The notes beneath the pieces are model-generated. The model did no database searches, was not told where the DNA came from, and saw only the letters and a list, made by a program, of their open reading frames with translations. Below are positions 1 through 13,275 of a DNA stretch of 64,000 nt, piece after piece; the stretch's first letter is position 1; each line of letters starts with the position of its first letter. The position numbers and the translations under genes were made by a program. The DNA is from Bacteroidetes bacterium GWF2_43_63 (GTDB lineage: Bacteria; Bacteroidota; Bacteroidia; Bacteroidales; DTU049): NCBI GenBank assembly GCA_001769275.1, contig MEOQ01000015.1, positions 8,659 to 72,658 of the forward strand, in the 5' to 3' direction.

Positions 1-2017
1 GCAATCATATGCTTTCCGTAATTACGACTGGCGTTCCACCATGCCCCGATATGTATGGAGTATATTTGAAGACAAGGATTCCTCACTGGTTTTTGCAACC
101 TATCACGGACAGCTTTTTAAAATGAAAAACAACATTCTTTCCGAAGTGAAAGGATATCGTGAATCGATGGCAGCCAACGAAGTTTTTTATATGCAGGGGT
201 TTTGCAATTCGCTTGGACAATGGATGATTCCTACCAACTACCGAATCTTCGTTTACGACCACGGGAAAGTAAAATTTCTGCCGCTGTTGCATGAAGGAAA
301 TTTCAGCACTTGTCTGGCCACCTACGAAGATGCTGCAAATCACACCGTGTATTTCGGCACTACAAATGGCTTATTTATATATGACCTTATTTCAGAAGTG
401 CTAAAACGAATCGATACAAAAGGCGGCAATACGCTGGCCATTGAAAAAGACAAGCACGGGCATTTATGGATTTGCACGAATAAAAATGTGCTGTTGCTGA
501 AAAATGATTCTTCATTTAATGTCGATGAGAGTCCGGTAAACACTGGAGTTATATCATGTCGTAAAGACCCGCAAGGTAACATGTGGTATGCAAAAAAGGA
601 CGGTTTGTATTTTTATAACTACAAACGTCATTTAAAAATATGCGACGGTCATTTTTATTTTATTTCACTGTGGAAGAACAGTAAAATTATTGCCGGCGGA
701 ATTGAAGGAATTACCGTAATTGATCTTAAAAAACTCTATAATCACAATCGCTCAGCCCTTCAAACATTCGACAGATTCAATGGATTCATTGGAATTGAAT
801 GTGGTCAGAATGGAACATTGATCGATTCGCGCGGCAATGTGTGGATACCAACATCGGAAAGCGTGGTGCAATTTAAGCCTGAGCGTGCGATGTACGATAC
901 GAATGCGCCCATGCCCTATTTTGTATCGTTTGAGTATAGTTCAATAGATCTGCTTTGGAAAGAAATAAGCATTCCCTGGCTGCGCGATGATATATTGTTT
1001 GAGTTGGAGCCTAAACGAAACAACATCCGGATTGTTTTCGATGGGCTTGATTATATCAGCAGGGAGCGCATCACTTTTCGCTATCGCTTACTTGGATACA
1101 GCGATATTTGGAAAGAGTCCAAAAGTAATGAAGCTGTTTTTACAAATCTTAGCCCGGGAAATTACAAATTTGAATTGTTAGTGGCCAACGAAAACGGCTA
1201 CTGGAGCAAAACTCCAAGGGTGCTGTTATTCCGGATTAAACCCGCATTGGTTCAGACAATTGGTTTTAAAATTTTTATTATTCTGCTGAACCTTGCAATT
1301 ATAGTTGGAATCGTTTTTCTCATAATGCGAAAAAAGCAAATCAGGAAAGACAAGGAAAAAGAAGTCGAGCGGGAACTGGTTGCCATGCAGGTAAAGACCA
1401 TCAATGCGCAGCTTGATCCTCATTTCATTTTCAACACCATCACCGCCATTGGCAGCGAAGTGCAGGAAAAAAATCACGACAAAGCCTATGCTTACTTTGT
1501 AAAAGTATCGCAATTATTACGGAATTCATTAAAAAACTCTGATAAAATTACCCGTACGCTCGATGAAGAAATGCAATTTGTTTCAAATTATCTAAGCTTA
1601 CAGAAATTCAGATTCGAAGACAGGTTCAGCTACGACATTTTCATTGATCCTAATGTGAATCTTCAGATCACGGTCCCAAAAATGTGTGTTCAGATTTTTG
1701 TTGAGAATGCCATGAAGCATGGAATAGAGCAGCTTGCAAGTGGTGGATTACTCAAAATTTCTATCAGTAAAAATGAAAAGGGCAATATCTTTATGATCGA
1801 AGACAATGGAATTGGTCGTGAAGCTTCGGCGAGATTAGTCACACATTCCAATGGTCTTGGACTGCAGGTTTTCAAAGAGTTTTTTGAAATAATGAATCGA
1901 TATAATATCGAGATTGCATCATTTGTAATTCATGATTTGTTTGATGAAAAGGGAAAAGCAATCGGCACACGCGTTGAGCTTTTTATACCCGACGATTATT
2001 CGTATGTGATTCAATAA
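1..2017 (+). CDS. Sensor histidine kinase, LytS/YehU type (5' partial): propeller/Y_Y_Y sensor region, one TM helix, His_kinase and HATPase domains
   Basis: The frame of ORF 41..2017 stays open back to base 2, so the gene runs off the window. It has propeller-like repeats and a Y_Y_Y-like segment (FRYRLLGYSDIWKES...GNYKFELL). It has a TM helix (IFIILLNLAIIVGIVFLIM), a LytS-type H-box (LDPHFIFNTITAIG) and ATPase motifs (IEDNGIG, GLGL). Confidence 0.85.
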   Translation, partial: QSYAFRNYDWRSTMPRYVWSIFEDKDSSLVFATYHGQLFKMKNNILSEVKGYRESMAANEVFYMQGFCNSLGQWMIPTNYRIFVYDHGKVKFLPLLHEGNFSTCLATYEDAANHTVYFGTTNGLFIYDLISEVLKRIDTKGGNTLAIEKDKHGHLWICTNKNVLLLKNDSSFNVDESPVNTGVISCRKDPQGNMWYAKKDGLYFYNYKRHLKICDGHFYFISLWKNSKIIAGGIEGITVIDLKKLYNHNRSALQTFDRFNGFIGIECGQNGTLIDSRGNVWIPTSESVVQFKPERAMYDTNAPMPYFVSFEYSSIDLLWKEISIPWLRDDILFELEPKRNNIRIVFDGLDYISRERITFRYRLLGYSDIWKESKSNEAVFTNLSPGNYKFELLVANENGYWSKTPRVLLFRIKPALVQTIGFKIFIILLNLAIIVGIVFLIMRKKQIRKDKEKEVERELVAMQVKTINAQLDPHFIFNTITAIGSEVQEKNHDKAYAYFVKVSQLLRNSLKNSDKITRTLDEEMQFVSNYLSLQKFRFEDRFSYDIFIDPNVNLQITVPKMCVQIFVENAMKHGIEQLASGGLLKISISKNEKGNIFMIEDNGIGREASARLVTHSNGLGLQVFKEFFEIMNRYNIEIASFVIHDLFDEKGKAIGTRVELFIPDDYSYVIQ

Positions 2018-2095: not shown

Positions 2096-3028
2096 TCACA
2101 AAGCAACAACCTGCTTATAGACCTCCAACGTTTGGGTAAGAATTCCACGAACTGCTTTATCGTTTGTAGAATAGCCGCTGGTGCGGGTTGTGACTTGTCT
2201 CAGTACCAGGACGTCGACCCCTTGTTCTGATGAAAATTCTTTAAGCATATTCTGAGTGCGGAGTTGAATTTTTGAGAATTTATTTTTCAATTCAAACTCA
2301 GGTTTAAAAATCAACACCGTATAAAAATATGGAAAATCAGTCGCGCCGACTTTATTGATGGAAAGTTGGCCATAGCATCCAAGAAAGGCTTCAGGAGAGC
2401 CATCCATGGTGAGTTTTAGTTTCACTTCTTTTGGATACATGGCTTTTGTTTTAGCATTTTCGGCCAGCAAAGTCAGGTATCCAACTTTTATTGATTTGTT
2501 CAGTTCAGTTACTATGTCGGCAGCTTTCATGCAATTTTTTGCGTAAATTAAAACTCTTGAAGCCATGTCGTAACGTCTGAAACCAGATAAAAAATGCGGA
2601 ATGAACAGTATCAGAAAATTGCCACCGAAGAAAGATACGTTCTGATCGTTTTCTTCTATGCCAATAATTACAATAAAAAAACCGACCACCAATACAACAA
2701 AAAACAGCAGCCCTCCCAAACACGAAGTCACCTCAAAACCGCTTCTGTCCCAGCGTCTGAGCTTTCGGTCCATGCTGATTATTTCTTCAATCTGTTGTCT
2801 GGTCGATGATTTCCATTCTGTGTTGTGATGAAATCGTTCTATATGAAGGCGCGAATCGACGCCTTTATTCAGCATGAGAAGCGATGCACATGCTATCAGA
2901 ACGGCGCCAGCAAGGAAGTTTCCGGTGACAAGCTGAAGCACAATTCCACCCCCAAAGATGGCAATAAAAAGAATCACCCGAAGCGAATTCGACATGCGCG
3001 GAAAAAAATGGAAAAATAGTTTTTTCAT
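2096..3028 (-). CDS. Hypothetical membrane protein (about 4 N-terminal TM helices plus a soluble C-terminal domain); third gene of the rSAM operon
   Basis: 310-aa ORF. Hydrophobic segments include VILFIAIFGGGIVLQLV, AGAVLIACASLLML, LGGLLFFVVLVVGFFIVIIGI and FLILFIPHFL. Its start codon (3026-3028) overlaps the stop of the upstream rSAM gene (ATGA, 3025-3028). Confidence 0.6.
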   Translation of the reverse strand: MKKLFFHFFPRMSNSLRVILFIAIFGGGIVLQLVTGNFLAGAVLIACASLLMLNKGVDSRLHIERFHHNTEWKSSTRQQIEEIISMDRKLRRWDRSGFEVTSCLGGLLFFVVLVVGFFIVIIGIEENDQNVSFFGGNFLILFIPHFLSGFRRYDMASRVLIYAKNCMKAADIVTELNKSIKVGYLTLLAENAKTKAMYPKEVKLKLTMDGSPEAFLGCYGQLSINKVGATDFPYFYTVLIFKPEFELKNKFSKIQLRTQNMLKEFSSEQGVDVLVLRQVTTRTSGYSTNDKAVRGILTQTLEVYKQVVAL

Positions 3029-4359
3029 AGGACAGCTTGTGTTATGTTCGATTTCCGTGGCTTTAGCAAACGACTGTCATGGTTGCAATCGACACGATAA
3101 AACAGGGGACAGGCACCCTGACAGATTGCCAGACTATCGCACTCCGTGCAGATTTCAGGTGCTGATTTTTTATTTCTTATTTCGGTTGAACGATCCGAAA
3201 ACCAGATGGAATTGAAGTCGTGTGTAAGCAAATTTCCAAGTGGTTCATTCCATGAAGAGCATGGTAAAATATTTCCACCCGGATCCACCGACAGCAATCC
3301 ATCGCAGGCAGCGCAACCTTTGTTGCCAAGCCCTTCCGTAATTGTATTAAAAATGCAAAGCGGAGTGGGTGAGTACCACATGAATTCAATTTTCCGCTTT
3401 GCTGCAGCAGCATTTACGGACCGGATTATTTCGCCTGCTTCCGAATACTGCAGCAGGTGCATTTCGTTTGCCAGTGCGCTTCCTGTAGGAATGATCAGAT
3501 TCATGCTGAAGCGCTCTGCCTTGAGTTGTTGTTTTAGAAACTGAGGTAATTCAGCTGCTTCATGCATATTTTGTTTCGAAAGTGTGGTATTTGTATGCGT
3601 GCGGATATTGTTAGAATTCAGCACTGCAACAGCGTTTAATGCATTTGCAAAACTACCCGGAATGCCTGTAATACTTTCATGTGTACTTTGAGTGGTACCT
3701 TCCAGACTTATTTGTGCGGAGTCAAGTCCTGATCTTTTAAACTCGGCAGCCATGCTTTCATCGATTAAAAAACCATTGCTGATGAGATTTACGCGCATAT
3801 CCAAACTTTTAGCATAAGCAATTAATGCCGGAAGATCTGCTCGCAAAGTGGGCTCACCACCTGTAAAGCTGATTGAAGGAACTTTGGCCTGGTAGCGGAT
3901 TTTTTGAATGATTTGTTTGATTTCATCAGAACTCAAATCGTGCGAATCGGTGGTGCAATCATGATTTATACCGGCATAGCAAAACGAACAACGCAGATTG
4001 CATTTTCCGGTAACAGCAACTTCACTCAAAACCGGAAGTGACGTGAAAGGAGCTTCGAATGCGGACTTCACAACAGCCTGATTTTGTGTCCAGAGGTCAA
4101 GATTGCCTTCCAGCGATGATTTTACAGCATTCAGAAATGAAAGCAATTCAGTTAGCTGAACTTCGTTTTTCCCGATTTGAGTGAGCAACCCATCAATGCT
4201 GTATCCATTTAATAGTCTGTGCAAAATCAATGCACCCGAAGGATTGAGCTTCTGTACATGGTTGGGCTTTTTGATCAGCATATTATCATCTAGTCGTACC
4301 TCAATATAAGGCCGCACATTGGCGATGAATTCTTTAACCCAAATAAAACGCTGATCCAT
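3025..4359 (-). CDS. Radical SAM/SPASM-domain peptide-modifying enzyme with a PqqD/RRE-like N-terminal extension
   Basis: CxxxCxxC motif CNLRCSFCYA at about residue 120. GGEPTL motif. Cys-rich SPASM-like C-terminus (CAACDG...LPCSSW...CTECDSLAICQGACP). The N-terminal ~110 aa (KKPNHVQKLNPSGALILHRLLNGYSIDGLL) resemble PqqD-type recognition elements. Confidence 0.85.
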   Translation of the reverse strand: MDQRFIWVKEFIANVRPYIEVRLDDNMLIKKPNHVQKLNPSGALILHRLLNGYSIDGLLTQIGKNEVQLTELLSFLNAVKSSLEGNLDLWTQNQAVVKSAFEAPFTSLPVLSEVAVTGKCNLRCSFCYAGINHDCTTDSHDLSSDEIKQIIQKIRYQAKVPSISFTGGEPTLRADLPALIAYAKSLDMRVNLISNGFLIDESMAAEFKRSGLDSAQISLEGTTQSTHESITGIPGSFANALNAVAVLNSNNIRTHTNTTLSKQNMHEAAELPQFLKQQLKAERFSMNLIIPTGSALANEMHLLQYSEAGEIIRSVNAAAAKRKIEFMWYSPTPLCIFNTITEGLGNKGCAACDGLLSVDPGGNILPCSSWNEPLGNLLTHDFNSIWFSDRSTEIRNKKSAPEICTECDSLAICQGACPLFYRVDCNHDSRLLKPRKSNITQAVL

Positions 4360-4371
4360 ATTCGTCAGTTA

Positions 4372-6033
4372 TTAATGTGAACCACCGCTTACGCAGGCGC
4401 TGTGACAAGCCGAATGACATGCACTGTGACAGGCTGAGTGACAAGCACTGTGGCACGCGCTGTGGCATGCATCGTGGCAGGCCGCATGACAAGCGTTGAT
4501 ATCCGGAATAATGTCCGAATGAATGCTGTTGTAAACCACATGATCGGTATTGACCGGAAAATACTGCTCATAATGCGTCGGATTCATCACTCCGCGATAA
4601 GTGAAGTATGGATGATAATACATATAATAGCGATTCCACGTGTTGTAGAGCGGATCAGATTTATCCTCCATAAAAATCTGCTGCGAAGGATTTGACTTTT
4701 CATAATCATCCGTTTTCGATTGAATGAGTTCACTGTAGTATTTTTTCGTGGCCTCGACATCGGCATCCCAGGCCTTTTCACGAATGTTGGCTATAGCTTT
4801 ATTCATGATTGCATTCAGCTCTTCCTGCGAAAAAACGCCATCATCGCTGAGCGCATTGAAAAATAATTCTTCATAATCATTGTCAAACGCAAGCGGTTTA
4901 TCAATGATTTGCACAGTGAGCGGATCATTTTTCAACACTTTTAAATATTGTTGTGATTCGAAAGCTGCAAGCATTGAACTGAAAATTTTCTTGATTGGAA
5001 ACTCAAGATAGAAGGCGATTTCAACATAATTCAGATTGTCACAGATTTTTCCGGGAATGCTGTAAGTAGCCATTTCTATTTTGGGCGGAATCCAGTTTAG
5101 TTTGTCCCAGCCAAGACTTTCTGCATTGTCCCTTGCATTTGCAAGTCCTTTGTTTTTAAAAATGAAATACAATGCAAAAATCAGAAGCAGCACCAATGCA
5201 AGAACTCCCAGCGTTTGCGGATTGATGGCTTCAAAGCTGGGAGAATAATCATTGTAATTGTAATAACCGTCTGTATTGTCAGTTGCAGCGTCGTCTGAAA
5301 CCAGTTGGTATGGCTTCACTTGCGTTGAATCGAACCAATTCGCAGGCATGTAAATTTGCACTCTTGGCGAGAAACTGTATTCAGGAGAATTTTTATTTAC
5401 AAGCATCAACAAGCGACCGGCTTCTTTGATCTGGAAATCGATTTCATAACTTTCGTTCATCCACTTCTCGGTCATGATGAGACTGTCGGCATACACCCGC
5501 TCGCGCACATTTGTAGCAAAATCAGGTTTAAAAGGGGTTAAAATTTTCAGCGTGTAATGATCCATGCCGGTGGCATCGGAATCCCATTCAGTAGGCGCCC
5601 AATCAAAGAAAATAAGATTTTTTCCATCAGCAGAAGTAGTAGTTCCCAAATAACCTGCTGATGCAAAATCGGTTTCAAACCAGAAAAAGTAGGTCACAAA
5701 ACCGCTTCCAACGCCCTTTCCATCTGCCAGAATGATATCGTATTTTCCGTCACCCATGTTGGTTATTGATAGACCGTAGTTATTTCCGCGGCTGTCAACC
5801 GCATAATTTTTATCGGAGAATGACGAGATTTTCAGGCGGTCGAGGCCGCTGAAATAGAAGCCATGCAATTCGCCTTCAACCACAGTGTAGCGGACGCAAT
5901 AGCCAATTACAGCTTTGCCATTGGCTTGCAGGTCAACCGTACATTCAATAAAATTGACATTTCCGGTTCCGGCAAAAAGCTGAGCGGCAAATAAAAACAG
6001 CAGAAGCGAAATTTTAAATTTCCTCAGATTCAT
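4372..6033 (-). CDS. Membrane-anchored protein (DUF2207-like architecture as I recall it) with a C-terminal Cys/His CXXX repeat tail; putative rSAM substrate
   Basis: 553-aa ORF with signal peptide MNLRKFKISLLLFLFAAQLFAG. It has a ~270-aa N-terminal domain and a single central TM helix (LGVLALVLLLIFALYFIF). The Tyr/His-rich C-terminal region ends in NACHAACHDACH(SACH)5SACVSGGSH. Only 12 nt separate it from the rSAM gene. Confidence 0.8.
   Translation of the reverse strand: MNLRKFKISLLLFLFAAQLFAGTGNVNFIECTVDLQANGKAVIGYCVRYTVVEGELHGFYFSGLDRLKISSFSDKNYAVDSRGNNYGLSITNMGDGKYDIILADGKGVGSGFVTYFFWFETDFASAGYLGTTTSADGKNLIFFDWAPTEWDSDATGMDHYTLKILTPFKPDFATNVRERVYADSLIMTEKWMNESYEIDFQIKEAGRLLMLVNKNSPEYSFSPRVQIYMPANWFDSTQVKPYQLVSDDAATDNTDGYYNYNDYSPSFEAINPQTLGVLALVLLLIFALYFIFKNKGLANARDNAESLGWDKLNWIPPKIEMATYSIPGKICDNLNYVEIAFYLEFPIKKIFSSMLAAFESQQYLKVLKNDPLTVQIIDKPLAFDNDYEELFFNALSDDGVFSQEELNAIMNKAIANIREKAWDADVEATKKYYSELIQSKTDDYEKSNPSQQIFMEDKSDPLYNTWNRYYMYYHPYFTYRGVMNPTHYEQYFPVNTDHVVYNSIHSDIIPDINACHAACHDACHSACHSACHSACHSACHSACHSACVSGGSH
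4390..4497 (-). repeat. In-frame 12-nt (4-codon) repeat x9 encoding x-A-C-H/V units
   Basis: I read it codon by codon. The units are 4390-4401 SACV, five SACH units (4402-4461), DACH (4462-4473), AACH (4474-4485) and NACH (4486-4497). Synonymous codons differ between units. Confidence 0.95.
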
Positions 6034-6050
6034 GGATTATTTCTTTGAAG

Positions 6051-6058
6051 CAAAAATA
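6051..6058 (-). promoter_or_regulatory. Possible Bacteroidota -7 box (TAnnTTTG) for the rSAM operon
   Basis: Plus-strand CAAAAATA is TATTTTTG on the minus strand, 18 nt upstream of the ATG at 6033. Confidence 0.25.
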
Positions 6059-6083
6059 TGATTTTTCAGGATGATATTTCAAG
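6058..6083. promoter_or_regulatory. Tandem 13-mer direct repeat ATGATwTTTCArG x2 in the divergent promoter region
   Basis: atgatttttcagg (6058-6070) is immediately followed by atgatatttcaag (6071-6083). It lies between the rSAM operon start (6033) and the LytTR gene start (6132). Confidence 0.3.
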
Positions 6084-6095
6084 AATTAATATTTA

Positions 6096-6103
6096 TATAT
6101 TTG
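6096..6103 (+). promoter_or_regulatory. Possible -7 box (TAnnTTTG) for the LytTR regulator gene
   Basis: tatatttg lies 29 nt upstream of the ATG at 6132. Confidence 0.3.
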
Positions 6104-6131
6104 CTGTTGGCGAAAATAAATAAACAGATCG

Positions 6132-6851
6132 ATGTTAAAGGTAATTCTGGTTGATGATGAAGCCAAAGCTCGCAGAAGTCTGGCTCTGTTGCTTGAGAAA
6201 ATCGGCAACGTTCAGGTTATTGCCGAAGCATCCGATGCCCAGGAAGGAATCAGAGCTATAGCGATGAATCAACCGGACATAGTTTTTCTGGATGTGAAAA
6301 TGCCCGGCATGAGCGGGTTTGACATGCTAGACTCTATTGACAAAATTGTTTTGCGCGAATTTGGAGTGATTTTTCTTACTGCCTATGATGAATTTGCCAT
6401 CCGCGCAATAAAATATTCGGCATTTGACTATTTGTTGAAACCGGTTGATGAAGCAGAACTCAGAGAAACAATCGATCGGTATTTGTCCAATAATCATCCA
6501 TTGCAGGATTATGATGCGTTGAAGACCGCGCTGAATCAAAATACCAAGATTAGAATCCGCACTGCTCTTGGCTTTGAATATATCAATGCGATGGATGTTA
6601 TTTACATAGAAGGCGACGGAAATTACTCCAAATTTGTTCTATCGAAAGACGACATACGGACTGTGAGCCGGACATTGAAAGACATTAGCAGTGAATTGCC
6701 GGAAGAATTCCTGAGGATCCATAAAAAATACTATATTAATAAGAGTTATTTAGTTTCTTTAAACCGGTTTGATCATGAATGTTTGCTTGAAAAAGACTCA
6801 GTTCAATTTAGAGTTCCTGTTTCAGTCAGGATGATGAAGAATGTTCGCTAG
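6132..6851 (+). CDS. LytTR-family two-component response regulator (CheY receiver plus LytTR DNA-binding domain)
   Basis: Receiver motifs are ILVDDE and PDIVFLDVKMPGMSGF. The C-terminal LytTR-like segment is IYIEGDGNYSKFVL...RIHKKYYINKSYL. Confidence 0.9.
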   Translation: MLKVILVDDEAKARRSLALLLEKIGNVQVIAEASDAQEGIRAIAMNQPDIVFLDVKMPGMSGFDMLDSIDKIVLREFGVIFLTAYDEFAIRAIKYSAFDYLLKPVDEAELRETIDRYLSNNHPLQDYDALKTALNQNTKIRIRTALGFEYINAMDVIYIEGDGNYSKFVLSKDDIRTVSRTLKDISSELPEEFLRIHKKYYINKSYLVSLNRFDHECLLEKDSVQFRVPVSVRMMKNVR

Positions 6852-7096
6852 TTATAGTAATACGTATTGAATAATATAGATTTTTAGATTATTGATTCAA
6901 ATATAATGTTAATATTTGACGCTTACAGCTATTAAGTATACGAATACTAAAAACATGATGCGTAAGTATTGACATTTCTAAATTTCTGATTAATTTTACA
7001 GCACTGATTCTCTCACAGATCGCTATTAAAATAGTGTATTTGGAATAAGTGGAGAAATTTACTTATATCCTGATTCTGATAGTTTATAAAGTTTAC

Positions 7097-7130
7097 ACCT
7101 CCGGGGCGCAAGTTTCGGAGGTTTTATTTT
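7097..7130 (+). terminator. Rho-independent terminator-like hairpin
   Basis: Stem acctccg (7097-7103) pairs with cggaggt (7116-7122), followed by a T-rich run (ttttatttt). It lies about 250 nt downstream of the LytTR gene. Confidence 0.4.
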
Positions 7131-7181
7131 GCCATATTCCGATTATAAAATCATCGTATCTTTGAAAAAAATTCAGAGACA

Positions 7182-7517
7182 ATGATACAGTGGTACGATG
7201 AACTTCCTTTTGCAATTACAGTGTCGGACAGGGAAGGCAATATAGTTTACATGAACAACCGATCAGCTGCGACATTTGAAAAATATGGCGGCAGAAATTT
7301 ACTTGGGAAATCGCTGTTTGGCTGCCATCCGCAGCAGGCATCGGATAAAATAAGGGAAATGATGCTGAGTCATGAAACCAATGCATATACAATTGAAAAA
7401 GAAGGCGTGAAAAAGATGATTTATCAGAGTCCCTGGTACGAGAACGGAGAAGTTGCCGGCTTAATAGAATTATCGCTTGTGCTGCCCGAAAAGATGCCTC
7501 ATTTTGTGAGAAAATAA
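7182..7517 (+). CDS. Small stand-alone PAS-domain protein
   Basis: 111 aa. The PAS-like pattern is PFAITVSDREGNIVYMNNRSAATFEKYGG...GKSLFGCHP...EVAGLIE. Confidence 0.6.
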   Translation: MIQWYDELPFAITVSDREGNIVYMNNRSAATFEKYGGRNLLGKSLFGCHPQQASDKIREMMLSHETNAYTIEKEGVKKMIYQSPWYENGEVAGLIELSLVLPEKMPHFVRK

Positions 7518-7908
7518 ACGAGGACTTCTCAAAACGAAGTCTTCTCCAAAAACAACATTCCACCGTCCGATGCGACGAAGGAGCTGAAGGACATGGAACC
7601 GTTGTTTTTGCTATTGTTACGACGGTTCCGGCTTAAAAGCATGGAAGAATTCCCTATCATCGGCCGGAACGGTGGAATGTCGTAGCAAACCGTTATTTTG
7701 ATATTTTATCGCTTAAAAAAAATGACGAAGCAAATCACTTCGTCATTTAAACTTTCTTGTTTAAGATTTTCTGGAAAATCTGAATGAATTTACTTCAAAC
7801 TTCTTCTTTCCTTGTTTTTCTTGATCGGTCTGAATGCACGGATTGTTCATGATTTACGAATGTGTCTTCACTTCATCCTTCAAACTTCCTTGTTCCTTGT
7901 TCAATATT

Positions 7909-8961
7909 CTAATAGAGCGTTCTGCTCCTGGTTTTATTCTGAACAATATAGCGAACCATAATTTCAAAGCCACCTTTACCGCTGGTTGCATTGGCAAGTT
8001 TGGAAACATTGATATCGTAGCTCAAACCGAAAGCCAGATCATTAAGTTCTATTAAAGCATGAGCAATTACTGCATCACCAGTGCGAAAATGACCACCCAG
8101 CGACAGATAAGCATCGTTGATGAATCCGGTGTATTTTGATTGTTCACGCAGTGTGTAGCGCGCCATTAGTCCAGGCACAATTTCTTTCTGTGTGCCCTGT
8201 ACCTGTACAAGAACGGTCGGAATGAGTGAAGTATTGGTCCCGCCAAGTCCAATCTGAGCTTTGCCATGAGCAGAAATGCGCATTCCAAGCTTTTCGTCGG
8301 AGTTTCCAAAAAATTCAAATGACGGCTGATTAACATGACTCACCGAAAAACCAGCATTCGCCTTCAGTCCATCATTCGATGACATATTTGTTGAATTGTG
8401 AATCATCGACCAATTCATTCCAAATCCAAAGTCAGCATAGGTAAATGACTGAAAAGCAAAAGTCTCATTACTTGGCAGGGCACCATCATAGCCCGAAACG
8501 CCGTCGTACTGATTGTCCCACATCATTCCACCCTGATCGATTGACCTTTGTCCAAAGCCGCCATACAAACCTGCAGAAAGCAATTGCTCGTCGCTGATGC
8601 GCAGATGATAGGCGATATTGAGATTGCCAATCAGGTTACTGAAATTGAGATCACCGGCCACATCATTAAAAACATTGACGCCCAGAGCCAGAAATCCGCT
8701 TTTACCTGCAGCGTTTGAAGTAACGGGTGCATCGTATGAAATGGCATACGTATTATATGCATTTCCAATCGAACGCCATTGATTTTTGTAGTTCAATGCA
8801 ATCCGGTGTGAGCCGTCGAAAAATCCAGCCAATGACGGGTTCACCATGAGCGGTGCATCGTTGTACTGGCTGAAATGTATATCCTGAGCCGAGACTGATG
8901 CAGCGAACAGAACCATAAAAATCCAGTTGATCGTCTTTTTCATTTGGGAGAATTTGTTCAA
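7909..8961 (-). CDS. PorP/SprF-family type IX secretion system membrane protein
   Basis: Signal peptide followed by the family signature AQDIHFSQYNDAPLMVNPSLAG. It sits immediately downstream of a type B CTD protein, which is the usual pairing. Confidence 0.85.
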   Translation of the reverse strand: MNKFSQMKKTINWIFMVLFAASVSAQDIHFSQYNDAPLMVNPSLAGFFDGSHRIALNYKNQWRSIGNAYNTYAISYDAPVTSNAAGKSGFLALGVNVFNDVAGDLNFSNLIGNLNIAYHLRISDEQLLSAGLYGGFGQRSIDQGGMMWDNQYDGVSGYDGALPSNETFAFQSFTYADFGFGMNWSMIHNSTNMSSNDGLKANAGFSVSHVNQPSFEFFGNSDEKLGMRISAHGKAQIGLGGTNTSLIPTVLVQVQGTQKEIVPGLMARYTLREQSKYTGFINDAYLSLGGHFRTGDAVIAHALIELNDLAFGLSYDINVSKLANATSGKGGFEIMVRYIVQNKTRSRTLY

Positions 8962-8970
8962 AATTAATAA

Positions 8971-11535
8971 TTATCTGACAAGTGTAATATTACCGTGAAT
9001 CTCAGACTGCGAAGCATCGACAAAAGTTGCTTTCACATAAAAGACAAACACTCCCGGGTCGAGTTCATTTCCTTTGTAGGTTCCATCCCAGCCGTAATCC
9101 ATCGATGCGCTTTCGAAAATCTTTTCTCCCCAGCGGTCATAGATTATGAATGTCAGGTATTCAACACCTTCGCCGCGAACAAAGACTGCATCGTTGTTTC
9201 CGTCACCGTTGGGTGAAAAAATGTTGGGTACCCAAACATGAGGAATAAAGCACAAATCATCTGATTCAATGATACTGGCCTGACGAATCCAGCCACAGCT
9301 GTTTGCGTCGGTCACTGTAACGCTGAAAACTCCGGGAGTCAGTGCAACAATTGAGTCTGTATTTTCGCTGTTGCTCCACAAAACTGAGTAGGGCAATGTG
9401 CCACCGGAAATTTCAACCCAGGCCGCTCCATCGTTGAGATCTATACAGGTTTCATCGGTTGAGAAAATGTTTACAACAGGCGTTTCATAAATGGAAATGC
9501 TGGTCGTATCAGCATCGCCACATGATCCCGAAATGGTGTAAATAATTTCGTGATTGCCTTCGCCTGCCGTTGCCGGATTGAAAGTTCCTGCTGCAGCATT
9601 GGTTATTCCAGTGCCGCTCCAGGAGCCACCTGCATCGACGGAGGTCAGATTAAGCGCACTTTCATTATCACAGAAAGGACCTGCAGCACTTATTGTAGCA
9701 TTGGCAACAGCAATAACAGTTACCGGAATCGAGGCCGTATCGCCGCAAGCGCCAACAATTCCATAAGTGATTGAATGTGTGCCAACTCCTGCTGTAGCAG
9801 GATCAAATGTTCCTGTTGAAGTGTTCGTTATTCCGGTTCCGCTCCAAATACCACCTGCATCTGCAGCATTCATATTAATGGCAGCATCAAGTATACAGAA
9901 AGGACCTGCCGCAGCAATGGTCGCATCGGCGCTTTGTGTTACATTGATGGTGACAGTATCCGCATCGCCGCAATTGCCGGAGATATTATAAATAATTTCG
10001 TACGAACCGGCACCTGCTACTCCCGGATTGAATGTGCCATTTGTTGTATTGGTTATTCCAGTTCCGCTCCATAAGCCACCTGGATCACTTGCAGAAAGGT
10101 TTACAGCAGCATCGGCCGAACAAAAACCGGGTGCAGAAATGATGGTTGCGTCGGCCCAGGGCTGCACCGTTACCTGGATATTATCGGTTGCCGGACAAAG
10201 GCCACCATTGGTAACGGTAACTGAATAGTTTGCGCTTGAAGCAACCGTAATCGTTTGAGTGATTGCAAAATTCGACCAAAGATATCCGTTGCCGGATGTT
10301 CCGGCGTCAAGTATCAGTGATTCGCCCTGACAGATGGTAGTATCGGCTCCCAGATTGACAACCGGCACTGCAACAACATTAATATTAATGGCATCGGATG
10401 CGGTGCAGGTGCCTGCAGACACAGTGACACTGTAGGAAGCGCCGGTATTAACCGTAATTGACTGACTGCTGCTGCCCGTACTCCATGTGTAGGATGTAAA
10501 ACCGGGGCCGGCATTGAGTGTGACACTTGAACCACTGCAGATGGTAGAGTCATTGCCCAGATTGATTATTGGTGCACCGCGCGTGAGTCCGTAGGGCAGC
10601 TGACTGAAATTATTCCATCCAATTATGGCGGCGTGACTAAGCGGAATGCCAGAAACAATTGAAGCGCCAGCCATATTGTACCATTCTGTTGATGGTGCTG
10701 TGTACCAGTTTCCAAGACTTTCCCAGATGCCATCAGCTGTTTGGTCATAATAAACATTCATGTTTACAGCATCTGTACCTGCGGTTCGATTAATCTGATG
10801 ATAGAAAAACGGATTAACCAAACAAATGACTGCTTCTTTCATCGTGCGGTCATAGCCTTCAGAAGTTGCATCCAAATTGGCCATGCGAACAACATAGGTG
10901 TTTGCAGCTGCCGAAGCGGGGGTCAATTCAACAGGTCTGTAGCGGGTTGTTCCGGTACTGGAACCGACTGGAAATAAATAAGTAGCAGCCTGAGCTGTGT
11001 TTCGCGAAAGCAGACCGCCATTGTTGCTACTGACAAATCCCGTAGTTCGCTGAATGGCATTGGTAGCTGCATTGGTAACAAACATCGTATAAATATTGGT
11101 CGCCAGTTCCCGGTCATTCAGATTCAGCACCCCAGTTGTAGTCTGGTTTATGGTCTGTGTCTTTATCCCGGTACCAAGTAAAGTCAGATTGAAGAATGAT
11201 GTAGAAACGCTTCCAGAGAGGTTTTGAGCAGCACCTTCGAGCGATACCAGACCAGTGAAAGCGTTAAAAACACTGTTGTTGATCCAGTTGCCATTGAGAT
11301 GAATATTGCCATAACCATTTATTGTGGCGTTGTTCGTCAGGCTACCAGTGATGTACACATTGGCCGCAGACGCAGCAGCAACATTGATGGTTCCGGTTTG
11401 ATTCTGCAAGTCGCCATTCACTTGAACAACAGCGCCTGGATTCATTTGAACCGTAGAGCCACTGTTATAGAACAGCTGTGCAGATAACAACAATGGAATA
11501 AATACTACTATTATTAAAACAATAACTGTTCTCAT
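8971..11535 (-). CDS. T9SS type B sorting domain (gliding-motility-associated C-terminal domain) surface protein
   Basis: C-terminal signature VPNIFSPNGDGNNDAVFVRGEG...IYDRWGEKIFE...GWDGTYKG...GVFVFYV. It has an N-terminal signal peptide and internal Ig-like repeats. Confidence 0.9.
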   Translation of the reverse strand: MRTVIVLIIVVFIPLLLSAQLFYNSGSTVQMNPGAVVQVNGDLQNQTGTINVAAASAANVYITGSLTNNATINGYGNIHLNGNWINNSVFNAFTGLVSLEGAAQNLSGSVSTSFFNLTLLGTGIKTQTINQTTTGVLNLNDRELATNIYTMFVTNAATNAIQRTTGFVSSNNGGLLSRNTAQAATYLFPVGSSTGTTRYRPVELTPASAAANTYVVRMANLDATSEGYDRTMKEAVICLVNPFFYHQINRTAGTDAVNMNVYYDQTADGIWESLGNWYTAPSTEWYNMAGASIVSGIPLSHAAIIGWNNFSQLPYGLTRGAPIINLGNDSTICSGSSVTLNAGPGFTSYTWSTGSSSQSITVNTGASYSVTVSAGTCTASDAININVVAVPVVNLGADTTICQGESLILDAGTSGNGYLWSNFAITQTITVASSANYSVTVTNGGLCPATDNIQVTVQPWADATIISAPGFCSADAAVNLSASDPGGLWSGTGITNTTNGTFNPGVAGAGSYEIIYNISGNCGDADTVTINVTQSADATIAAAGPFCILDAAINMNAADAGGIWSGTGITNTSTGTFDPATAGVGTHSITYGIVGACGDTASIPVTVIAVANATISAAGPFCDNESALNLTSVDAGGSWSGTGITNAAAGTFNPATAGEGNHEIIYTISGSCGDADTTSISIYETPVVNIFSTDETCIDLNDGAAWVEISGGTLPYSVLWSNSENTDSIVALTPGVFSVTVTDANSCGWIRQASIIESDDLCFIPHVWVPNIFSPNGDGNNDAVFVRGEGVEYLTFIIYDRWGEKIFESASMDYGWDGTYKGNELDPGVFVFYVKATFVDASQSEIHGNITLVR
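9487..10155 (-). repeat. Three tandem ~75-aa (225-nt) coding repeats inside the type B CTD protein
   Basis: Residues ~461-535, 536-610 and 611-683 share A(D/N)ATI.A.GPFC...A.N....DAGG.WSGTGITN...GTF.P..AG.G.H.I.Y.I.G.CGD. They also produce the antisense ORFs at 9554-10228. Confidence 0.85.
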
Positions 11536-11541
11536 AACAGA

Positions 11542-13275
11542 CTATTTATTAATGTTTTGATTAATTCTTATATTATTCCGATCAATAGATTTAAATGATT
11601 GATCAAAGTCGTAAATAGTACTATGGGTTTCAATTTGAGGACTATTCATTAGAGTTCTCATTTCTTGTTTCTTTGCTTCGTCAATTTTCAACTGATTCAT
11701 GATTTCAGGACTGATTTCATAGTTTTCTTCCATTTCAGCAATTCTGCCTAAAGCCAGCCAGTTAAAATTCAATGACTGGTCTTTTGATACAATAGTAAAC
11801 CCTTTATTATCCTGAGACTTGATATAATAATCAGCGTCGGGCGACAATACAGTTATCATCACAATAGGATCTGCTACGAAAGAATTGTTGCTAAATTCCG
11901 AGGAATAATTAATTCTGGTTTCTCCTGATGACACGCTAATAGTACCGAATTCATTAACTTCCATATTTTTTTTAATACTACTTACTTCATTTGCAAGATA
12001 TTGAACACCTGCCAGTGTTAATGTCGACAAAGAATAAACATCAATGCCGCCGAAGGCATTATCCTGTAAATAATCTGGTGTTTCATCCAGAATTAATCCA
12101 ACATGGTAATTATAACGAGTTTTCTGTTCTTCACCATCAACGATTTCATTATTTTCGTTATTAAATTTATATAGACTTGGCTTCATTTTCATGATGTCTT
12201 CCATTGCAAAACTGTAAAGATCAGAGTCAAATGAAACTATATCTCGTTTCAATTCTCTTCTAGAAACAGCAGTAGCAGTTTGATAATAAAGAGCATACCA
12301 GTAAATAGTATTGGTTCCCAAAAACCCCCACCCGCCAAAGGATGGAGCCAAGGTTGGTTCATTGGCAATATTGTTCATGTGAATACTTTTTTGAGCTGCA
12401 TTACTGACGAAAAACACACTTGAGCCAGAAACATTCAAGCCTGGATTAATATTTGATGCACCATAGATTTCTGCGGCAGGATATGTAGAACCATATGTTT
12501 CAACAAGCAGGCCCGGCATGGAATTACCAACCCCCCAGACTCCAACAGCAGTGCTGCCAATTCCATTCCCGTATATACCAGCCCCTAATCCAGATGCAGT
12601 ATTAGATGTGTTTTCGCCCCAAACGCCAACACCAATACCAGTCCCGTCAAAATATCCACTCACTCCTGAGGGGAAATAGCTGGAGTTTGTGTTAGTCCCT
12701 AAGTGCTGACCTGAAACAGCAGCATATAAATTGGTACTTGCAGAATTTAAACCGAAAACCCCACCTCCATATATTCCAGAATGCTCAGCATTAAGTCCAG
12801 CTGTTGGATTTGTCGATGTACCATTTGCAATACTTATTTTAATTGCATTTGGAGTTGTTGTAGCAGGCACTCCTGATGTGACATTAACAGCTACACTTCC
12901 TGCATCAGCGGTGATGCTTCTCCCAACTCCGTTACCACCACAGTCATAAGCTCCATCGAGTGTTACACAAGTCGGCGCACTGGCAGCTCCAACCTGCACC
13001 CATTGAGATCCGTCCCAGTAATAGAAACCTGCCGTCATGGCTCCACCAGTATTAAAAACCAGCAGACCTGTAGCTGGTCCGGCAACGGGTGTTGTACCGT
13101 TTGTGGCTGCAACCAGAGTTACTCTGGGGATCAGCAGACCTTTGTCGGTTGCAGTCAGATCAAGCAGTGCTGATGCGACCGGAGTGGTTGTCCCTATCCC
13201 GACATTATTCTGTGCTTTAGCAGAAATAAGCGACAAAGTGCTGAAAATCAAGCTGAGAAGGAAAATTCGTTTCAT
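11542..13275 (-). CDS. Tail-fibre-domain protein with a peptidase S74 / intramolecular-chaperone-like domain (cellular, secreted)
   Basis: Signal peptide and the N-terminal motif QNNVGIGTTTP. A Gly-rich central region. S74-like segment SRRELKRDIVSFDSDLYSFAMEDIMKMKPSLYKF...YHVGLILDETPDYLQ...IDVYSLSTLTLAGVQYL. Confidence 0.7.
   Translation of the reverse strand: MKRIFLLSLIFSTLSLISAKAQNNVGIGTTTPVASALLDLTATDKGLLIPRVTLVAATNGTTPVAGPATGLLVFNTGGAMTAGFYYWDGSQWVQVGAASAPTCVTLDGAYDCGGNGVGRSITADAGSVAVNVTSGVPATTTPNAIKISIANGTSTNPTAGLNAEHSGIYGGGVFGLNSASTNLYAAVSGQHLGTNTNSSYFPSGVSGYFDGTGIGVGVWGENTSNTASGLGAGIYGNGIGSTAVGVWGVGNSMPGLLVETYGSTYPAAEIYGASNINPGLNVSGSSVFFVSNAAQKSIHMNNIANEPTLAPSFGGWGFLGTNTIYWYALYYQTATAVSRRELKRDIVSFDSDLYSFAMEDIMKMKPSLYKFNNENNEIVDGEEQKTRYNYHVGLILDETPDYLQDNAFGGIDVYSLSTLTLAGVQYLANEVSSIKKNMEVNEFGTISVSSGETRINYSSEFSNNSFVADPIVMITVLSPDADYYIKSQDNKGFTIVSKDQSLNFNWLALGRIAEMEENYEISPEIMNQLKIDEAKKQEMRTLMNSPQIETHSTIYDFDQSFKSIDRNNIRINQNINK

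Follow-up and report, generated by a model that had tools for sequence, protein, structure and literature searches.

A conserved three-gene module pairs a radical SAM/SPASM enzyme with a membrane protein that carries a C-terminal Cys/His ladder

Layout of the locus

The window, a 64,000-nt stretch of contig MEOQ01000015.1 from Bacteroidetes bacterium GWF2_43_63, carries on its minus strand three packed genes, which according to the ORF list encode a 553-aa membrane protein, a 444-aa radical SAM/SPASM enzyme and a 310-aa four-TM protein (Table 1). The tight spacing described in the original prediction was verified in the sequence for both the 12-nt gap and the ATGA overlap. Gene 1 ends with the tandem stops TAA TAA, the second in-frame TAA opening the gap. 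Additionally, TATTTTTG (6058-6051, minus strand) lies 18 nt 5' of the gene 1 ATG and fits TAnnTTTG, which we take to be the consensus of the Bacteroidetes -7 element; a sigma-70 scan stayed at chance level.

Table 1. Coordinates of the genes and features within the window
Feature	Position	Strand	Basis
Gene 1, ladder-tailed membrane protein, presumed substrate	4372..6033	-	ORF, 553 aa; full-length orthologues 30-48% identity
Gene 1 signal-peptide-like N-terminus, aa 1-22 (MNLRKFKISLLLFLFAAQLFA, then GT)	5968..6033	-	N-terminal hydrophobic segment in 46/46 aligned members
Gene 1 extracytoplasmic beta-sandwich domain, aa 23-240, divergent DUF2207 N-terminal domain	5314..5967	-	AF2; PF09972 matches
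Gene 1 single transmembrane helix, aa 274-292	5158..5214	-	Hydropathy; AF2 helix 278-306; then KNKGLANARD
Gene 1 cytoplasmic helix-helix-strand-strand (winged-helix-like) plus helical domain, aa ~310-450	4684..5106	-	AF2 pLDDT 60-84; TIGR04222 matches
Gene 1 Cys/His ladder C-(H-x-A-C)8, aa 515-547, 9 Cys	4393..4491	-	Sequence; family conservation
Gene 1 conserved C-terminal cap VSGGSH	4375..4392	-	VSGGSH or close variants in 66/68 tails
Intergenic gap between gene 1 and gene 2, 12 nt, TAACTGACGAAT	4360..4371	-	Sequence
Gene 2, radical SAM/SPASM enzyme with N-terminal RRE-like domain	3025..4359	-	ORF, 444 aa
Gene 2 RRE-like N-terminal domain, aa 1-105	4045..4359	-	AF2 topology; weak sequence matches; 16 invariant residues
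Gene 2 CX3CX2C radical SAM cluster motif CNLRCSFC, aa 120-127	3979..4002	-	Sequence; invariant in 25 orthologues
Gene 2 SPASM auxiliary-cluster region, aa 335-417	3109..3357	-	PF13186, 34.6 bits; C335, C349, C352, C367, C404, C407, C413, C417
ATGA, gene 2 stop codon overlapping gene 3 start codon	3025..3028	-	Sequence check
Gene 3, two TM hairpins plus C-terminal soluble domain of ~160 aa	2096..3028	-	ORF, 310 aa
AT-rich divergent intergenic region, common to gene 1 and a LytTR regulator gene	6034..6131	.	Sequence

The predicted layout of gene 1, a signal-like segment followed by one further hydrophobic helix, was recovered. Its ectodomain is modelled by AF2 as an all-beta fold (pLDDT 70-92), for which Foldseek returned generic beta-sandwich matches only. 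The relationship to DUF2207 that had been suggested holds at the family level, since a profile search matched PF09972 (DUF2207) in 25 of 46 gene 1 orthologues (best E 4e-7), but the window's own protein gave no PF09972 match in that search. Positions 21-120 of the TIGR04222 profile match the cytoplasmic region in 12 of the 46 orthologues, with a best score of 31 bits (E 1.7e-7) vs a cutoff of 43; judged by these matches, the domain is a remote, sub-threshold TIGR04222 relative. Within the region first noticed as Tyr/His-rich, the 70 residues N-terminal to the ladder are Tyr-rich throughout the family (10% Y, 5% H). The tail is predicted to be cytoplasmic from the signal peptide and the single TM helix, and the positive-inside bias of K+R near this helix is modest (3.3 vs 2.4; 29 of 46 sequences).

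Gene 3 was described at the outset as a 4-TM protein, and four hydrophobic segments were indeed found (aa 18-34, 38-53, 103-124 and 131-147), joined by Lys/Arg-rich loops. Its relatives form 300 representative clusters, nearly all full-length members listed being ~290-350 aa long. Profile searches with gene 3 gave no Pfam, NCBIfam or PDB match.

Conservation of the ladder and its linkage to the enzyme

The C-terminus of gene 1 reads exactly as first reported, NACH-AACH-DACH-(SACH)5-SACV-SGGSH, with a Cys at every fourth residue (515, 519 ... 547). Another 67 proteins, from unrelated phyla, have the same grammar, a recurrence far beyond chance: all 496 of 496 ladder units are C-H-x-A, each ladder holds 8 to 10 Cys in phase, and His varies no more than Cys and Ala do. 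In the family alignment, ladders share 93.5% pairwise identity vs 35% for the remaining protein, and this comparison shows the ladder to be under extreme purifying selection. Moreover, all 6 CHSA units of the window ladder differ in DNA, distinct repeat-unit DNA averages 88% over 67 loci, and both TCN and AGY codons are used for Ser. The repeats thus use different codons; therefore, the ladder is kept by protein-level selection and not by replication slippage. The AF2 model gives the ladder a pLDDT below 40. Several subfamilies have a conserved motif directly before it, such as DH[LIV]xxG...[DN][LIM]N[VA]CH, and overlapping CxxxCH strings occur within it.

The three-gene module is present in more than 25 bacterial phyla. 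Across these, a ladder-tailed gene lies directly 5' of the enzyme gene on the same strand in 67 of the 70 orthologous genome loci having upstream DNA, and in the reverse direction every metagenome locus picked up through the ladder pattern (67 of 67) has the enzyme gene 3' of the ladder gene. The linkage between enzyme orthologues and CXXX-type tails, which the original prediction had offered for checking, is thus shown in both directions. Gene 3 comes next after the enzyme gene at nearly all loci, 71 of 72 from genomes and 51 of 55 from metagenomes. The exceptions are L004, L010 and L060, which have no adjacent ladder gene, and L070, which has no gene 3. No fourth conserved gene was found in the neighbourhoods of the orthologous loci, the next gene cluster occurring in only 6 loci.

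These neighbourhoods bear on whether gene 1 encodes a RiPP precursor with a giant leader, from which the modified ladder would be cleaved to serve, after release or export, as a small metallophore or signalling peptide, the membrane protein being a mere scaffold. RiPP pathways typically feature repeated core motifs and RRE-dependent maturases, and the conserved pre-ladder motif of several subfamilies could serve recognition or cleavage. We nevertheless regard such a pathway as quite improbable: no protease or transporter gene was conserved with the cassette in the survey of orthologous loci, and for gene 3, family comparison revealed neither a signature of peptidases or transporters nor any invariant Cys, His, Asp or Glu. 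Furthermore, two domains of the 500-aa "leader" are folded and conserved, which argues that the gene 1 protein works in place.

Architecture of the radical SAM/SPASM enzyme

The CNLRCSFC motif and Cys-rich SPASM C-terminus first noticed in the sequence are borne out by Pfam, with Radical_SAM (94 bits) and SPASM (34.6 bits vs a gathering score of 21.5) both passing their thresholds in the 444-aa enzyme. Among 25 orthologues, seven of the SPASM-region Cys never vary, and conservation of C335 is 90% or higher; the region holds CX9GX4C and CX2CX5CX3C. Compared with the canonical seven-Cys SPASM motif, the family has no last conserved Cys and has two extra upstream Cys, and therefore its cluster ligation may be unusual.

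The ~105-aa extension before this core, originally likened to a PqqD-type RRE, has RRE topology in the AF2 model of the enzyme (pLDDT 83, pTM 0.84), with a helix at 3-18, strands at 19-22, 27-30 and 34-38, and helices at 40-50, 55-62 and 66-83. The model suggests an RRE-type three-strand, three-helix domain. Sequence matches of this domain are weak (PqqD-family lasso chaperones, E 0.034; TfuB1, E 0.09), and 16 of its residues are invariant across phyla. The best PDB matches of the enzyme family profile are SkfB (4.9e-29), PqqE and SuiB, and Foldseek with the enzyme model ranked SkfB (2.7e-16) and SuiB (4.5e-16; 463 aligned columns, TM 0.66), two RiPP maturases, highest; anSME, PqqE and EpeE are also among the structural matches.

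None of the three proteins reaches any curated family cutoff, and in the curated-family profile search the enzyme reached that of no specific family. An anaerobic sulfatase maturase, the identity that the original prediction had singled out as a challenge to its own reading, was rejected (anSME model, 74.9 bits vs a cutoff of 349). The highest curated-family scores were those of tetrapyrrole enzymes (AhbD, 135 bits, the best match; NirJ2, 129 bits), which speaks against the reading favored here, but both lie far under the cutoff of 500. AhbD and NirJ have, to our knowledge, no RRE-type domain.

The top curated-family ranks of AhbD and NirJ would fit a ladder that serves unmodified as a metal- or iron-sulfur-binding tail, while the radical SAM substrate lies elsewhere (a small molecule, a tetrapyrrole or another part of the protein) and the tail is a mere partner, for example in cluster or electron delivery. 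Alternating Cys and His are a typical metal-binding composition, and the CxxxCH strings point the same way. However, the AhbD and NirJ scores reach roughly one fourth of what those models require, whereas the enzyme carries an RRE-type domain and aligns end to end with peptide maturases. Metal binding alone would also hardly account for the invariant Ala and the fixed repeat number. Additionally, haem c is attached outside the cytoplasm, whereas the tail is predicted to lie inside. We consider an unmodified tail unlikely.

Proposed maturation of the ladder and related systems

We found no description of the module in the databases and papers searched. On balance, we favor as probable that it is self-contained and that its enzyme modifies the ladder in situ to mature it, probably through thioether crosslinks. 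Gene 1 would be a single-pass protein with the DUF2207-like domain outside and the TIGR04222-like domain, the Tyr-rich linker and C-(H-x-A-C)n-VSGGSH inside. Gene 2 would be a cytoplasmic enzyme of RiPP-maturase build, combining an RRE, a radical SAM barrel and a SPASM domain with two auxiliary clusters, and the ladder would be its substrate. The RRE may dock on the pre-ladder segment or on the cytoplasmic domain, and the enzyme would then move along the ladder with one SAM-derived hydrogen abstraction per repeat. The likeliest product would be a row of small intramolecular thioether rings, in which each Cys sulfur bonds a carbon of a neighbour; the candidates are the invariant Ala (or Gly) three residues ahead (i+3) and the His three residues back (i-3). 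Because we know of no characterised radical SAM enzyme that acts on a C-H-x-A unit, thioether chemistry is proposed by analogy only. A point against this proposal is that a Cys/His ladder could bind metals unmodified.

For the physiological function of the module and the role of gene 3, we infer that the modified ladder remains on the protein, where it would form a rigid module on the inner face of the membrane, lined by His and probably metal- or redox-active, and that gene 3, whose soluble parts would all face the cytoplasm, probably either keeps enzyme and substrate together at the membrane or binds the ladder once it is complete. Reactions familiar from small natural-product peptides thus seem to serve here in the maturation of a whole protein.

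Two repeat systems resemble the ladder in period. The original prediction had pointed to a CXXX-repeat family, and a curated target model does exist (TIGR04117, "Cys-Xaa-Xaa-Xaa repeat radical SAM target protein"; PF27846), likewise with Cys at every fourth residue and an adjoining radical SAM gene. Its extension to our module did not hold, as the tail scores 16.8 bits against TIGR04117 vs a cutoff of 50, with weak matches in 6 of 46 orthologues and none at cutoff; a weak PF27846 match is precomputed on the orthologue P0122, and neither the enzyme nor gene 3 matches a CXXX-system model among the matches listed. TIGR04117 describes proteins of ~98 aa, whereas the ladder, a strict C-H-x-A unit in 8-10 copies with a VSGGSH cap, sits on a ~550-aa membrane protein. 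By these scores, the module is a system separate from the CXXX-repeat system and not its fused member. We know of no experimental characterisation of the CXXX-repeat system. In the ACGX-repeat system (TIGR04340, rSAM_ACGX), the target is presumably a short peptide with a period-4 Ala-Cys-Gly-Xaa repeat, which has the Ala-Cys pair and the period in common with A-C-H-x but Gly where our ladder has invariant His; the rSAM_ACGX model gives the enzyme 103 bits, far under its cutoff of 400.

For a ladder of small rings, the closest model is provided by the ranthipeptides freyrasin (PapB) and NxxcA (NxxcB), in which a SPASM radical SAM enzyme sets sulfur-carbon links from Cys to a nearby residue, six repeated Cys-to-Asp links in freyrasin and Cys23 to Asn20 (i-3) in NxxcA (PMC8326336). 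The rings proposed here would resemble these links; however, the ranthipeptide acceptors are Asp or Asn on short peptides, whereas our candidate acceptors are Ala, Gly or His, and the PapB model scores 71.9 bits on the enzyme vs a cutoff of 340. SuiB and SkfB, the closest solved structures (Foldseek E ~1e-16), likewise join an N-terminal peptide-binding domain to a radical SAM barrel and an auxiliary-cluster domain, and SuiB aligns to the enzyme over its full length, but sequence identity is 17-22%. On their short peptides, SuiB joins Lys to Trp through a carbon-carbon link, and SkfB joins Cys to Met through a thioether.

The enzyme may instead act on the ladder by other chemistry. It could set a Cys-His carbon-sulfur link, oxidise Cys to formylglycine or another carbonyl as anSME does, epimerise or methylate the ladder, or build an unusual metal-sulfur cofactor on the Cys/His scaffold. 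SPASM enzymes perform all of these reactions, and anSME, PqqE, SuiB and EpeE are among the structural matches; the altered SPASM Cys set, and ladder His as invariant as Cys and Ala when pure thioether ladders such as freyrasin need no His, also favor this possibility. We hold it to be possible but less than probable, since characterised RRE-bearing SPASM enzymes on Cys-rich targets mostly yield thioethers (PMC8326336) and the anSME score is low.

Maturation of the ladder by thioether formation in place would also have precedents on proteins. QhpD (acting on QhpC) and anSME, both of the SPASM radical SAM class, alter Cys-containing sites of proteins that go on to work as proteins and not as natural products (PMC8326336). 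They set a few specific links or one formylglycine on soluble enzymes or subunits, whereas the target in the module is a membrane protein with a repeated ladder. Unlike our enzyme with its RRE-like domain, anSME lacks an RRE. TIGR04222 membrane proteins with Cys-bearing, low-complexity C-terminal tails have been proposed as bona fide protein substrates of MNIO enzymes, and thus, like our module, combine a TIGR04222-type membrane protein, a Cys-bearing tail and an adjoining RiPP-type modifying enzyme (PMC12452194). The tails of these published proteins are predicted to be exposed to the periplasm, which counts against the reading favored here; they are Ser/Gly-rich and variable with scattered Cys, and the proteins are mostly from Actinomycetota and loosely linked to the enzyme, a multinuclear iron oxidase and not a radical SAM enzyme (PMC12452194). 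In contrast, our module has a near-invariant ladder, tight gene linkage and a DUF2207-like ectodomain.

Organization and conservation of the three-gene cassette

The radical SAM/SPASM enzyme (rSAM, gene 2) is encoded next to a protein ending in a Cys/His ladder (the carrier, gene 1), and this pairing occurs in more than 25 phyla, most of them known from uncultured genomes alone. A genome scan for rSAM relatives, limited to one genome per species, yielded 80 loci, of which 78 are orthologous; the other two (27-30% identity) belong to other rSAM families. The loci come from Desulfobacterota, Bacteroidota, Planctomycetota, Verrucomicrobiota, Lentisphaerota, Elusimicrobiota, Omnitrophota, Gemmatimonadota, Nitrospirota, Chloroflexota, Spirochaetota, Armatimonadota, Hydrogenedentota, Cloacimonadota, Calditrichota, Fermentibacterota, Sumerlaeota, WOR-3, Aminicenantes, KSB3 (Vecturithrix), Bdellovibrionota, Gamma- and Alphaproteobacteria, Clostridia and Gaiellales. 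One cultured strain, Desulfobulbus alkaliphilus DSM 24258, is among them.

Upstream DNA is usable in 70 orthologous loci, and in 67 of these a ladder-ending protein is encoded directly upstream on the same strand, the exceptions being L004, L010 and L060. These 67 proteins (490-790 aa) are homologous to the window protein over their full length, with 30-48% identity. Gene 3, encoding a membrane protein, follows rSAM in 71 of 72 loci with downstream DNA. All-against-all clustering of the flanking ORFs in the 80 loci revealed no fourth conserved gene, and the next-largest real cluster covered six loci. For the reverse test, metagenomes were scanned with the ladder peptides ACHSACHS and ACHSACVS as seeds, which gave 80 loci. 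An rSAM orthologue adjoins the ladder gene in all 67 of those with at least 700 nt downstream, and gene 3 is present in 51 of the 55 with enough room. The conserved linkage of enzyme and tailed protein expected from the original prediction is therefore seen from both directions.

At least 599 metagenome stretches match ACHSACHS or ACHSACVS, of which 440 proved to be carrier relatives; the remaining ones could be short contigs or ladders on other architectures. Carrier-family counts were taken from the locus scans. A word-indexed protein search matched only 4-5 such proteins and missed the window protein, even with a 46-sequence profile. The contig index does contain the 553-aa gene 1 call, and this scarcity likely reflects a blind spot of the index, probably caused by swamping by low-complexity words.

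In the window, the three minus-strand ORFs have the predicted boundaries, summarized below with the other mapped features. Genes 1 and 2 are separated by the expected 12-nt gap, with gene 1 terminating in tandem stops (TAA TAA), and genes 2 and 3 share the expected ATGA overlap. Sigma-70 promoter and terminator scans gave nothing above chance level, and no direct repeats were found in the intergenic region.

Mapped features of the cassette, its surroundings and the carrier protein, and of individual related loci
Feature	Place	Position	Strand	Remarks
Y_Y_Y/His_kinase sensor kinase gene	window	41-2017	+	truncated by window start
Gene 3	window	2096-3028	-	310 aa
Gene 2 (rSAM)	window	3025-4359	-	444 aa
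Gene 1 (carrier)	window	4372-6033	-	553 aa
LytTR response regulator gene	window	6132-6851	+
Type IX secretion or gliding surface cluster	window	7182-13275
Small PAS_4 protein	window, in cluster	7182-7517		Pfam name from syntenic locus L082
PorP/SprF	window, in cluster	7909-8961	-	Pfam name from syntenic locus L082
SprB/CHU_C-type adhesin	window, in cluster	8971-11535	-	Pfam name from syntenic locus L082
PTL_trimer protein	window, in cluster	11542-13275	-	Pfam name from syntenic locus L082
Signal-like segment	gene 1 protein	N-terminus		alignment and AlphaFold
Beta-sandwich domain	gene 1 protein	aa 23-230		AlphaFold, pLDDT 70-92
Disordered linker, then one TM helix	gene 1 protein	after beta-sandwich		alignment and AlphaFold
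Predicted cytoplasmic helix-helix-strand-strand (winged-helix-like) and three helices	gene 1 protein	aa ~318-447		alignment and AlphaFold
Aromatic-rich linker, then ladder	gene 1 protein	C-terminus		ladder pLDDT < 40, ladder geometry not interpretable
Inserted ORF, ~500 aa	L004	341-1834		at contig edge
Gene 1 relative with variant end	L006 (Candidatus Vecturithrix)	4424-5917
TIR-domain protein and AAA_22 ATPase genes	L081	2486-5685		Mb-scale contig
Inserted DNA, ~2 kb	L135	about 5150-7200

The cassette lies on the opposite strand between a sensor kinase gene and a response regulator gene, two genes that normally adjoin. The same arrangement is present in L082-L086, relatives whose rSAM is 81-100% identical, and the 80 genome loci of other lineages revealed no such conserved neighbour. 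We therefore rejected the flanking two-component system as a part of the module, since it is kept only among close Bacteroidales relatives. The genes further along form a type IX secretion or gliding surface cluster.

Single loci show other arrangements. In L004, the ladder and rSAM genes are separated by an inserted ORF whose C-terminal sequence resembles a group II intron reverse transcriptase/maturase, and additional DNA occupies the same place in L135. A defence-like TIR/AAA_22 gene pair just upstream of the cassette in L081 was seen once, and is probably a coincidence.

The Cys/His ladder and its carrier protein

The C-terminus of the window gene 1 protein reads NACH-AACH-DACH-(SACH)5-SACV-SGGSH, as predicted, with nine Cys spaced every four residues from 515 to 547. 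Among 68 tails, the in-phase run contains 8 (51 tails), 9 (14) or 10 (3) Cys, and every repeat unit (496/496) reads C-H-x-A, with Ser (400), Asp (71), Gly (17), Asn (4) or Ala (4) at position x. A ladder is thus composed of n Cys, n-1 His and n-1 Ala, and VSGGSH or a close variant follows the last Cys in 66 of the 68 tails. The residue at i+3 of every Cys is small: Ala, or Gly or Ser in the case of the last Cys. Pairwise identity is 93.5% in the ladder versus 35% elsewhere in the gene 1 protein, and the ladder motif is the most conserved part of the whole module.

No two of the six CHSA units in the window have the same DNA sequence, and ladder codons vary freely across the family, with Ser drawn from both codon families. 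Tandem Repeats Finder reported weak 12- and 24-nt periodicity in the window ladder DNA (71-86% matches), which, together with the distinct codons, indicates that this DNA is not a clean tandem repeat. A replication-slippage or low-complexity artefact was rejected on the basis of codon diversity and cross-phylum invariance. The ladder is under strong purifying selection at each position except x. The invariance of Ala goes beyond what simple metal binding would require, suggesting that Ala, or the geometry it permits, belongs to the reaction or its product.

The NCBIfam model of CXXX-repeat radical SAM targets (TIGR04117, cutoff 50 bits) gave 16.8 bits with the tail alone and no match with the full gene 1 protein. 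Sub-threshold matches were obtained for 6 of 46 orthologues (best E 5.3e-5; the four scores listed are 14-15 bits). None of the curated models searched describes the ladder motif, and the module falls in no curated family tested.

The 20 residues preceding the ladder differ by subfamily (L017, L025, L033, L042, L045 and others). The type that includes the window reads DH[LIV]xxG...[DN][LIM]N[VA]CH; other types carry additional Cys motifs, such as C[FY]EG[CPA]F..SACH or ACHSACYVHTACH. These motifs could be clade-specific recognition sequences for the putative RiPP recognition element (RRE) of the enzyme. In L006, the ladder is followed by VSGGGGSSGGGGASGGW instead of VSGGSH. This Gly-rich, Trp-terminated end resembles the tails of ordinary DUF2207-type proteins and hints that the ladder evolved from such Gly-rich tails.

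The family alignment and a shallow AlphaFold model (pLDDT 64, 6 sequences) agreed on the layout of the carrier body. With a single TM helix besides the signal/anchor segment, the last 260 residues are predicted to share the cytoplasmic side with the positively charged N-terminus; the positive-inside bias around the TM helix is modest. The cytoplasm is the working place of oxygen-sensitive Fe-S enzymes.

No Pfam or NCBIfam model matches the window gene 1 protein, and a profile search against PDB sequences gave no match. Foldseek retrieved generic beta-sandwiches with the gene 1 model, namely M1 aminopeptidase domain I and ribophorin I at ~10% identity, matches that appear to reflect fold similarity only. 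The suggested relation to DUF2207 (PF09972, N-terminal domain) shows in part of the family: 25 of 46 orthologues match (best E 4.1e-7), at least one of them above the 24.4-bit threshold (25.2 bits), and the window protein has no match at E <= 0.1. This pattern points to remote homology at the family level. TIGR04222 matched the cytoplasmic domain of 12 of 46 orthologues, always at profile positions 21-120, with a best score of 31.1 bits (E 1.7e-7). No orthologue reached the 43-bit cutoff and the window protein was unmatched, consistent with remote homology only.

In the gene 3 protein, we recovered the four predicted hydrophobic segments, which pair into two hairpins. Lys and Arg abound at the N-terminus, in the middle loop and in the stretch after TM4, and all soluble parts of the protein are hence expected in the cytoplasm. 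No Pfam or NCBIfam family covers gene 3; it bears no peptidase or transporter signature, and its profile matched no PDB sequence.

Classification of the radical SAM/SPASM enzyme

The CNLRCSFC motif (CX3CX2C) noticed earlier is located at aa 120-127 of rSAM and is invariant in 25 orthologues. The enzyme belongs to the radical SAM superfamily (PF04055, 94 bits versus a threshold of 29.5), and its anticipated SPASM-type C-terminus matches PF13186 (34.6 bits versus 21.5). In the 25-member alignment, the SPASM region has seven invariant Cys and one more, C335, with at least 90% conservation; the invariant pattern is C352-x9-G-x4-C367 and C404-x2-C407-x5-C413-x3-C417. The canonical final downstream Cys of SPASM is not conserved in this alignment, and C335 and C349 are additional.

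More than 2,500 rSAM homologues were found at E <= 1e-10, and the closest 120 are full-length with ~50% identity or more. No curated NCBIfam family claims the enzyme. The AhbD/NirJ models TIGR04545, TIGR04055 and TIGR04051 scored 135 (AhbD, the top match), 129 and 111.5 bits against a cutoff of 500, which places rSAM outside these families, and the PqqE and PapB models scored 110 and 71.9 bits against 381 and 340, respectively. An anaerobic sulfatase maturase (TIGR03942) was rejected at 74.9 bits versus a cutoff of 349; with this and the other curated models far below cutoff, rSAM is not drawn into another subfamily. Two families named in the original prediction did not emerge. The CXXX-repeat maturase model is absent from the best 25 of the 97 NCBIfam matches of the 444-aa rSAM, and must therefore score below 71.9 bits; no NCBIfam match to the CXXX-associated protein was found for gene 3 or 45 relatives. 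PADLOC detected no defence system: genes 1 and 3 were unmatched by its models, and rSAM showed only generic radical SAM similarity to viperins.

The rSAM family profile matched the PDB sequences of SkfB, PqqE, SuiB, anSME and CteB. Foldseek ranked the RiPP maturases SkfB (2.7e-16) and SuiB (4.5e-16) highest for the predicted rSAM model, and the SuiB alignment (463 columns, TM 0.66) spans all three domains.

About 105 residues precede the radical SAM core. In the alignment of 25 members, conservation of this extension equals that of the catalytic core, and 16 of its residues are invariant, among them W7, E10, Y18, R22, P32, N33 and the stretch LN..G..IL..LL.G. Sequence matches of the extension are weak (PqqD-family lasso-peptide chaperone, E 0.034; lasso RRE protein TfuB1, E 0.09), and the Pfam PqqD model gave no match to it. 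The AlphaFold model (pLDDT 83, pTM 0.84) predicts one helix, three strands and three helices at the N-terminus, apparently the topology of a PqqD-like RRE. We conclude that rSAM is a peptide- or protein-modifying enzyme combining a putative RRE with radical SAM and SPASM domains, in a family without a curated model.

Proposed maturation of the ladder and its implications

The sequence observation is confirmed, and the original prediction is supported. RRE-bearing radical SAM/SPASM maturases have so far been linked almost exclusively to the biosynthesis of small peptide natural products. The module appears to operate as RiPP maturases do on their substrates, except that the candidate substrate here is a large membrane protein. 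We consider it fairly probable that rSAM processes the ladder of the carrier and that the modified ladder stays and works in place. In this mechanism, the putative RRE of rSAM would dock on the cytoplasmic part of the carrier, and the enzyme would then work through the ladder, repeat after repeat. The modified ladder would stay attached and act at the inner face of the membrane, with the gene 3 product as a putative membrane-bound partner.

A classical RiPP pathway comprises a short precursor, a cleaved leader and a conserved protease and/or exporter in the cluster. Such a natural-product pathway does not fit here: the precursor would have ~550 aa and two folded domains, the 80 loci share no fourth gene, and gene 3 lacks protease or exporter features. 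The overlapping CxxxCH strings of the ladder raised haem attachment as a further candidate, which was rejected because the tail is predicted to be cytoplasmic, rSAM appears to carry an RRE and the AhbD/NirJ scores are about a quarter of the cutoffs.

In sactipeptides and ranthipeptides, thioethers run from Cys sulfur to the alpha-carbon (or beta/gamma-carbon). If the ladder is the substrate, thioether rings joining each Cys to a nearby carbon may be the product, with a likelihood that we place a little under even. They are favoured because Cys-rich targets of such enzymes usually give thioethers and because no Cys departs from the i+3 small-residue rule. Live alternatives to thioether rings are a Cys-His link and a built-up metal site. 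SPASM enzymes can join Cys by a thioether to an alpha, beta or gamma carbon; freyrasin contains six repeated Cys-to-Asp links, and NxxcA has Cys23 linked to Asn20 (PMC8326336). The substrates of QhpD and anSME are proteins, not RiPPs (PMC8326336).

According to a 2025 MNIO survey, TIGR04222 membrane proteins account for ~40% of the Cys-containing proteins that lack a signal peptide and are encoded upstream of MNIO genes. Their C-terminal regions are Ser/Gly-rich with interspersed Cys, and the authors suggest that subsets are bona fide proteins modified by MNIOs (PMC12452194). The maturation of a membrane-protein Cys tail by a RiPP-type enzyme therefore has a published, purely bioinformatic precedent in another enzyme class. 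The modifying enzyme of those pairs is an MNIO, whereas that of the present family is a radical SAM enzyme; the survey text contains radical SAM enzymes in two reference titles only (PMC12452194). The present carrier family appears to be a distant cousin of the MNIO-linked TIGR04222 proteins, served by a radical SAM enzyme. We found no paper on the ladder system in the literature searched (ladder motif, CXXX repeat, TIGRFAMs, DUF2207 with radical SAM, SPASM Cys-His crosslinks).

The only phenotype found in the literature for a DUF2207 protein is that of a Streptococcus mutans mutant, which tolerates acid and oxidative stress less well and forms less biofilm (PMC10457818). This phenotype, the ladder composition, and the bufferin and TIGR04222 parallel make metal or redox handling the most plausible direction for a cellular role, with low confidence. 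Rather doubtful is the reading that the ladder represents an undescribed, widespread class of protein-borne modification, in which a RiPP-type rSAM would turn it into a crosslinked, His-lined, metal- or redox-active module that functions in place, at the cytoplasmic end of a membrane protein resembling a receptor. On this reading, and together with the MNIO-TIGR04222 pairs, the low-complexity Cys tails of DUF2207/TIGR04222-type membrane proteins would form a general family of enzyme-matured, cofactor-like devices, each served by a different RiPP enzyme class.

Should the ladder be modified in place, RiPP chemistry would reach beyond peptides to the lasting maturation of proteins at the membrane, and a new type of crosslink or metal site would probably come to light. 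The very large DUF2207 and TIGR04222 families of unknown function would also gain a first functional handle. The system is directly testable, as it is compact at three genes, its target is defined within 40 residues and one or more cultured strains carry it.

An rSAM subclade from Aminicenantes (L060 and L062, ~41% identity) keeps the N-terminal domain, has no ladder protein upstream and shows gene 3 recognizably in its C-terminal half only. This subclade may have a different substrate.
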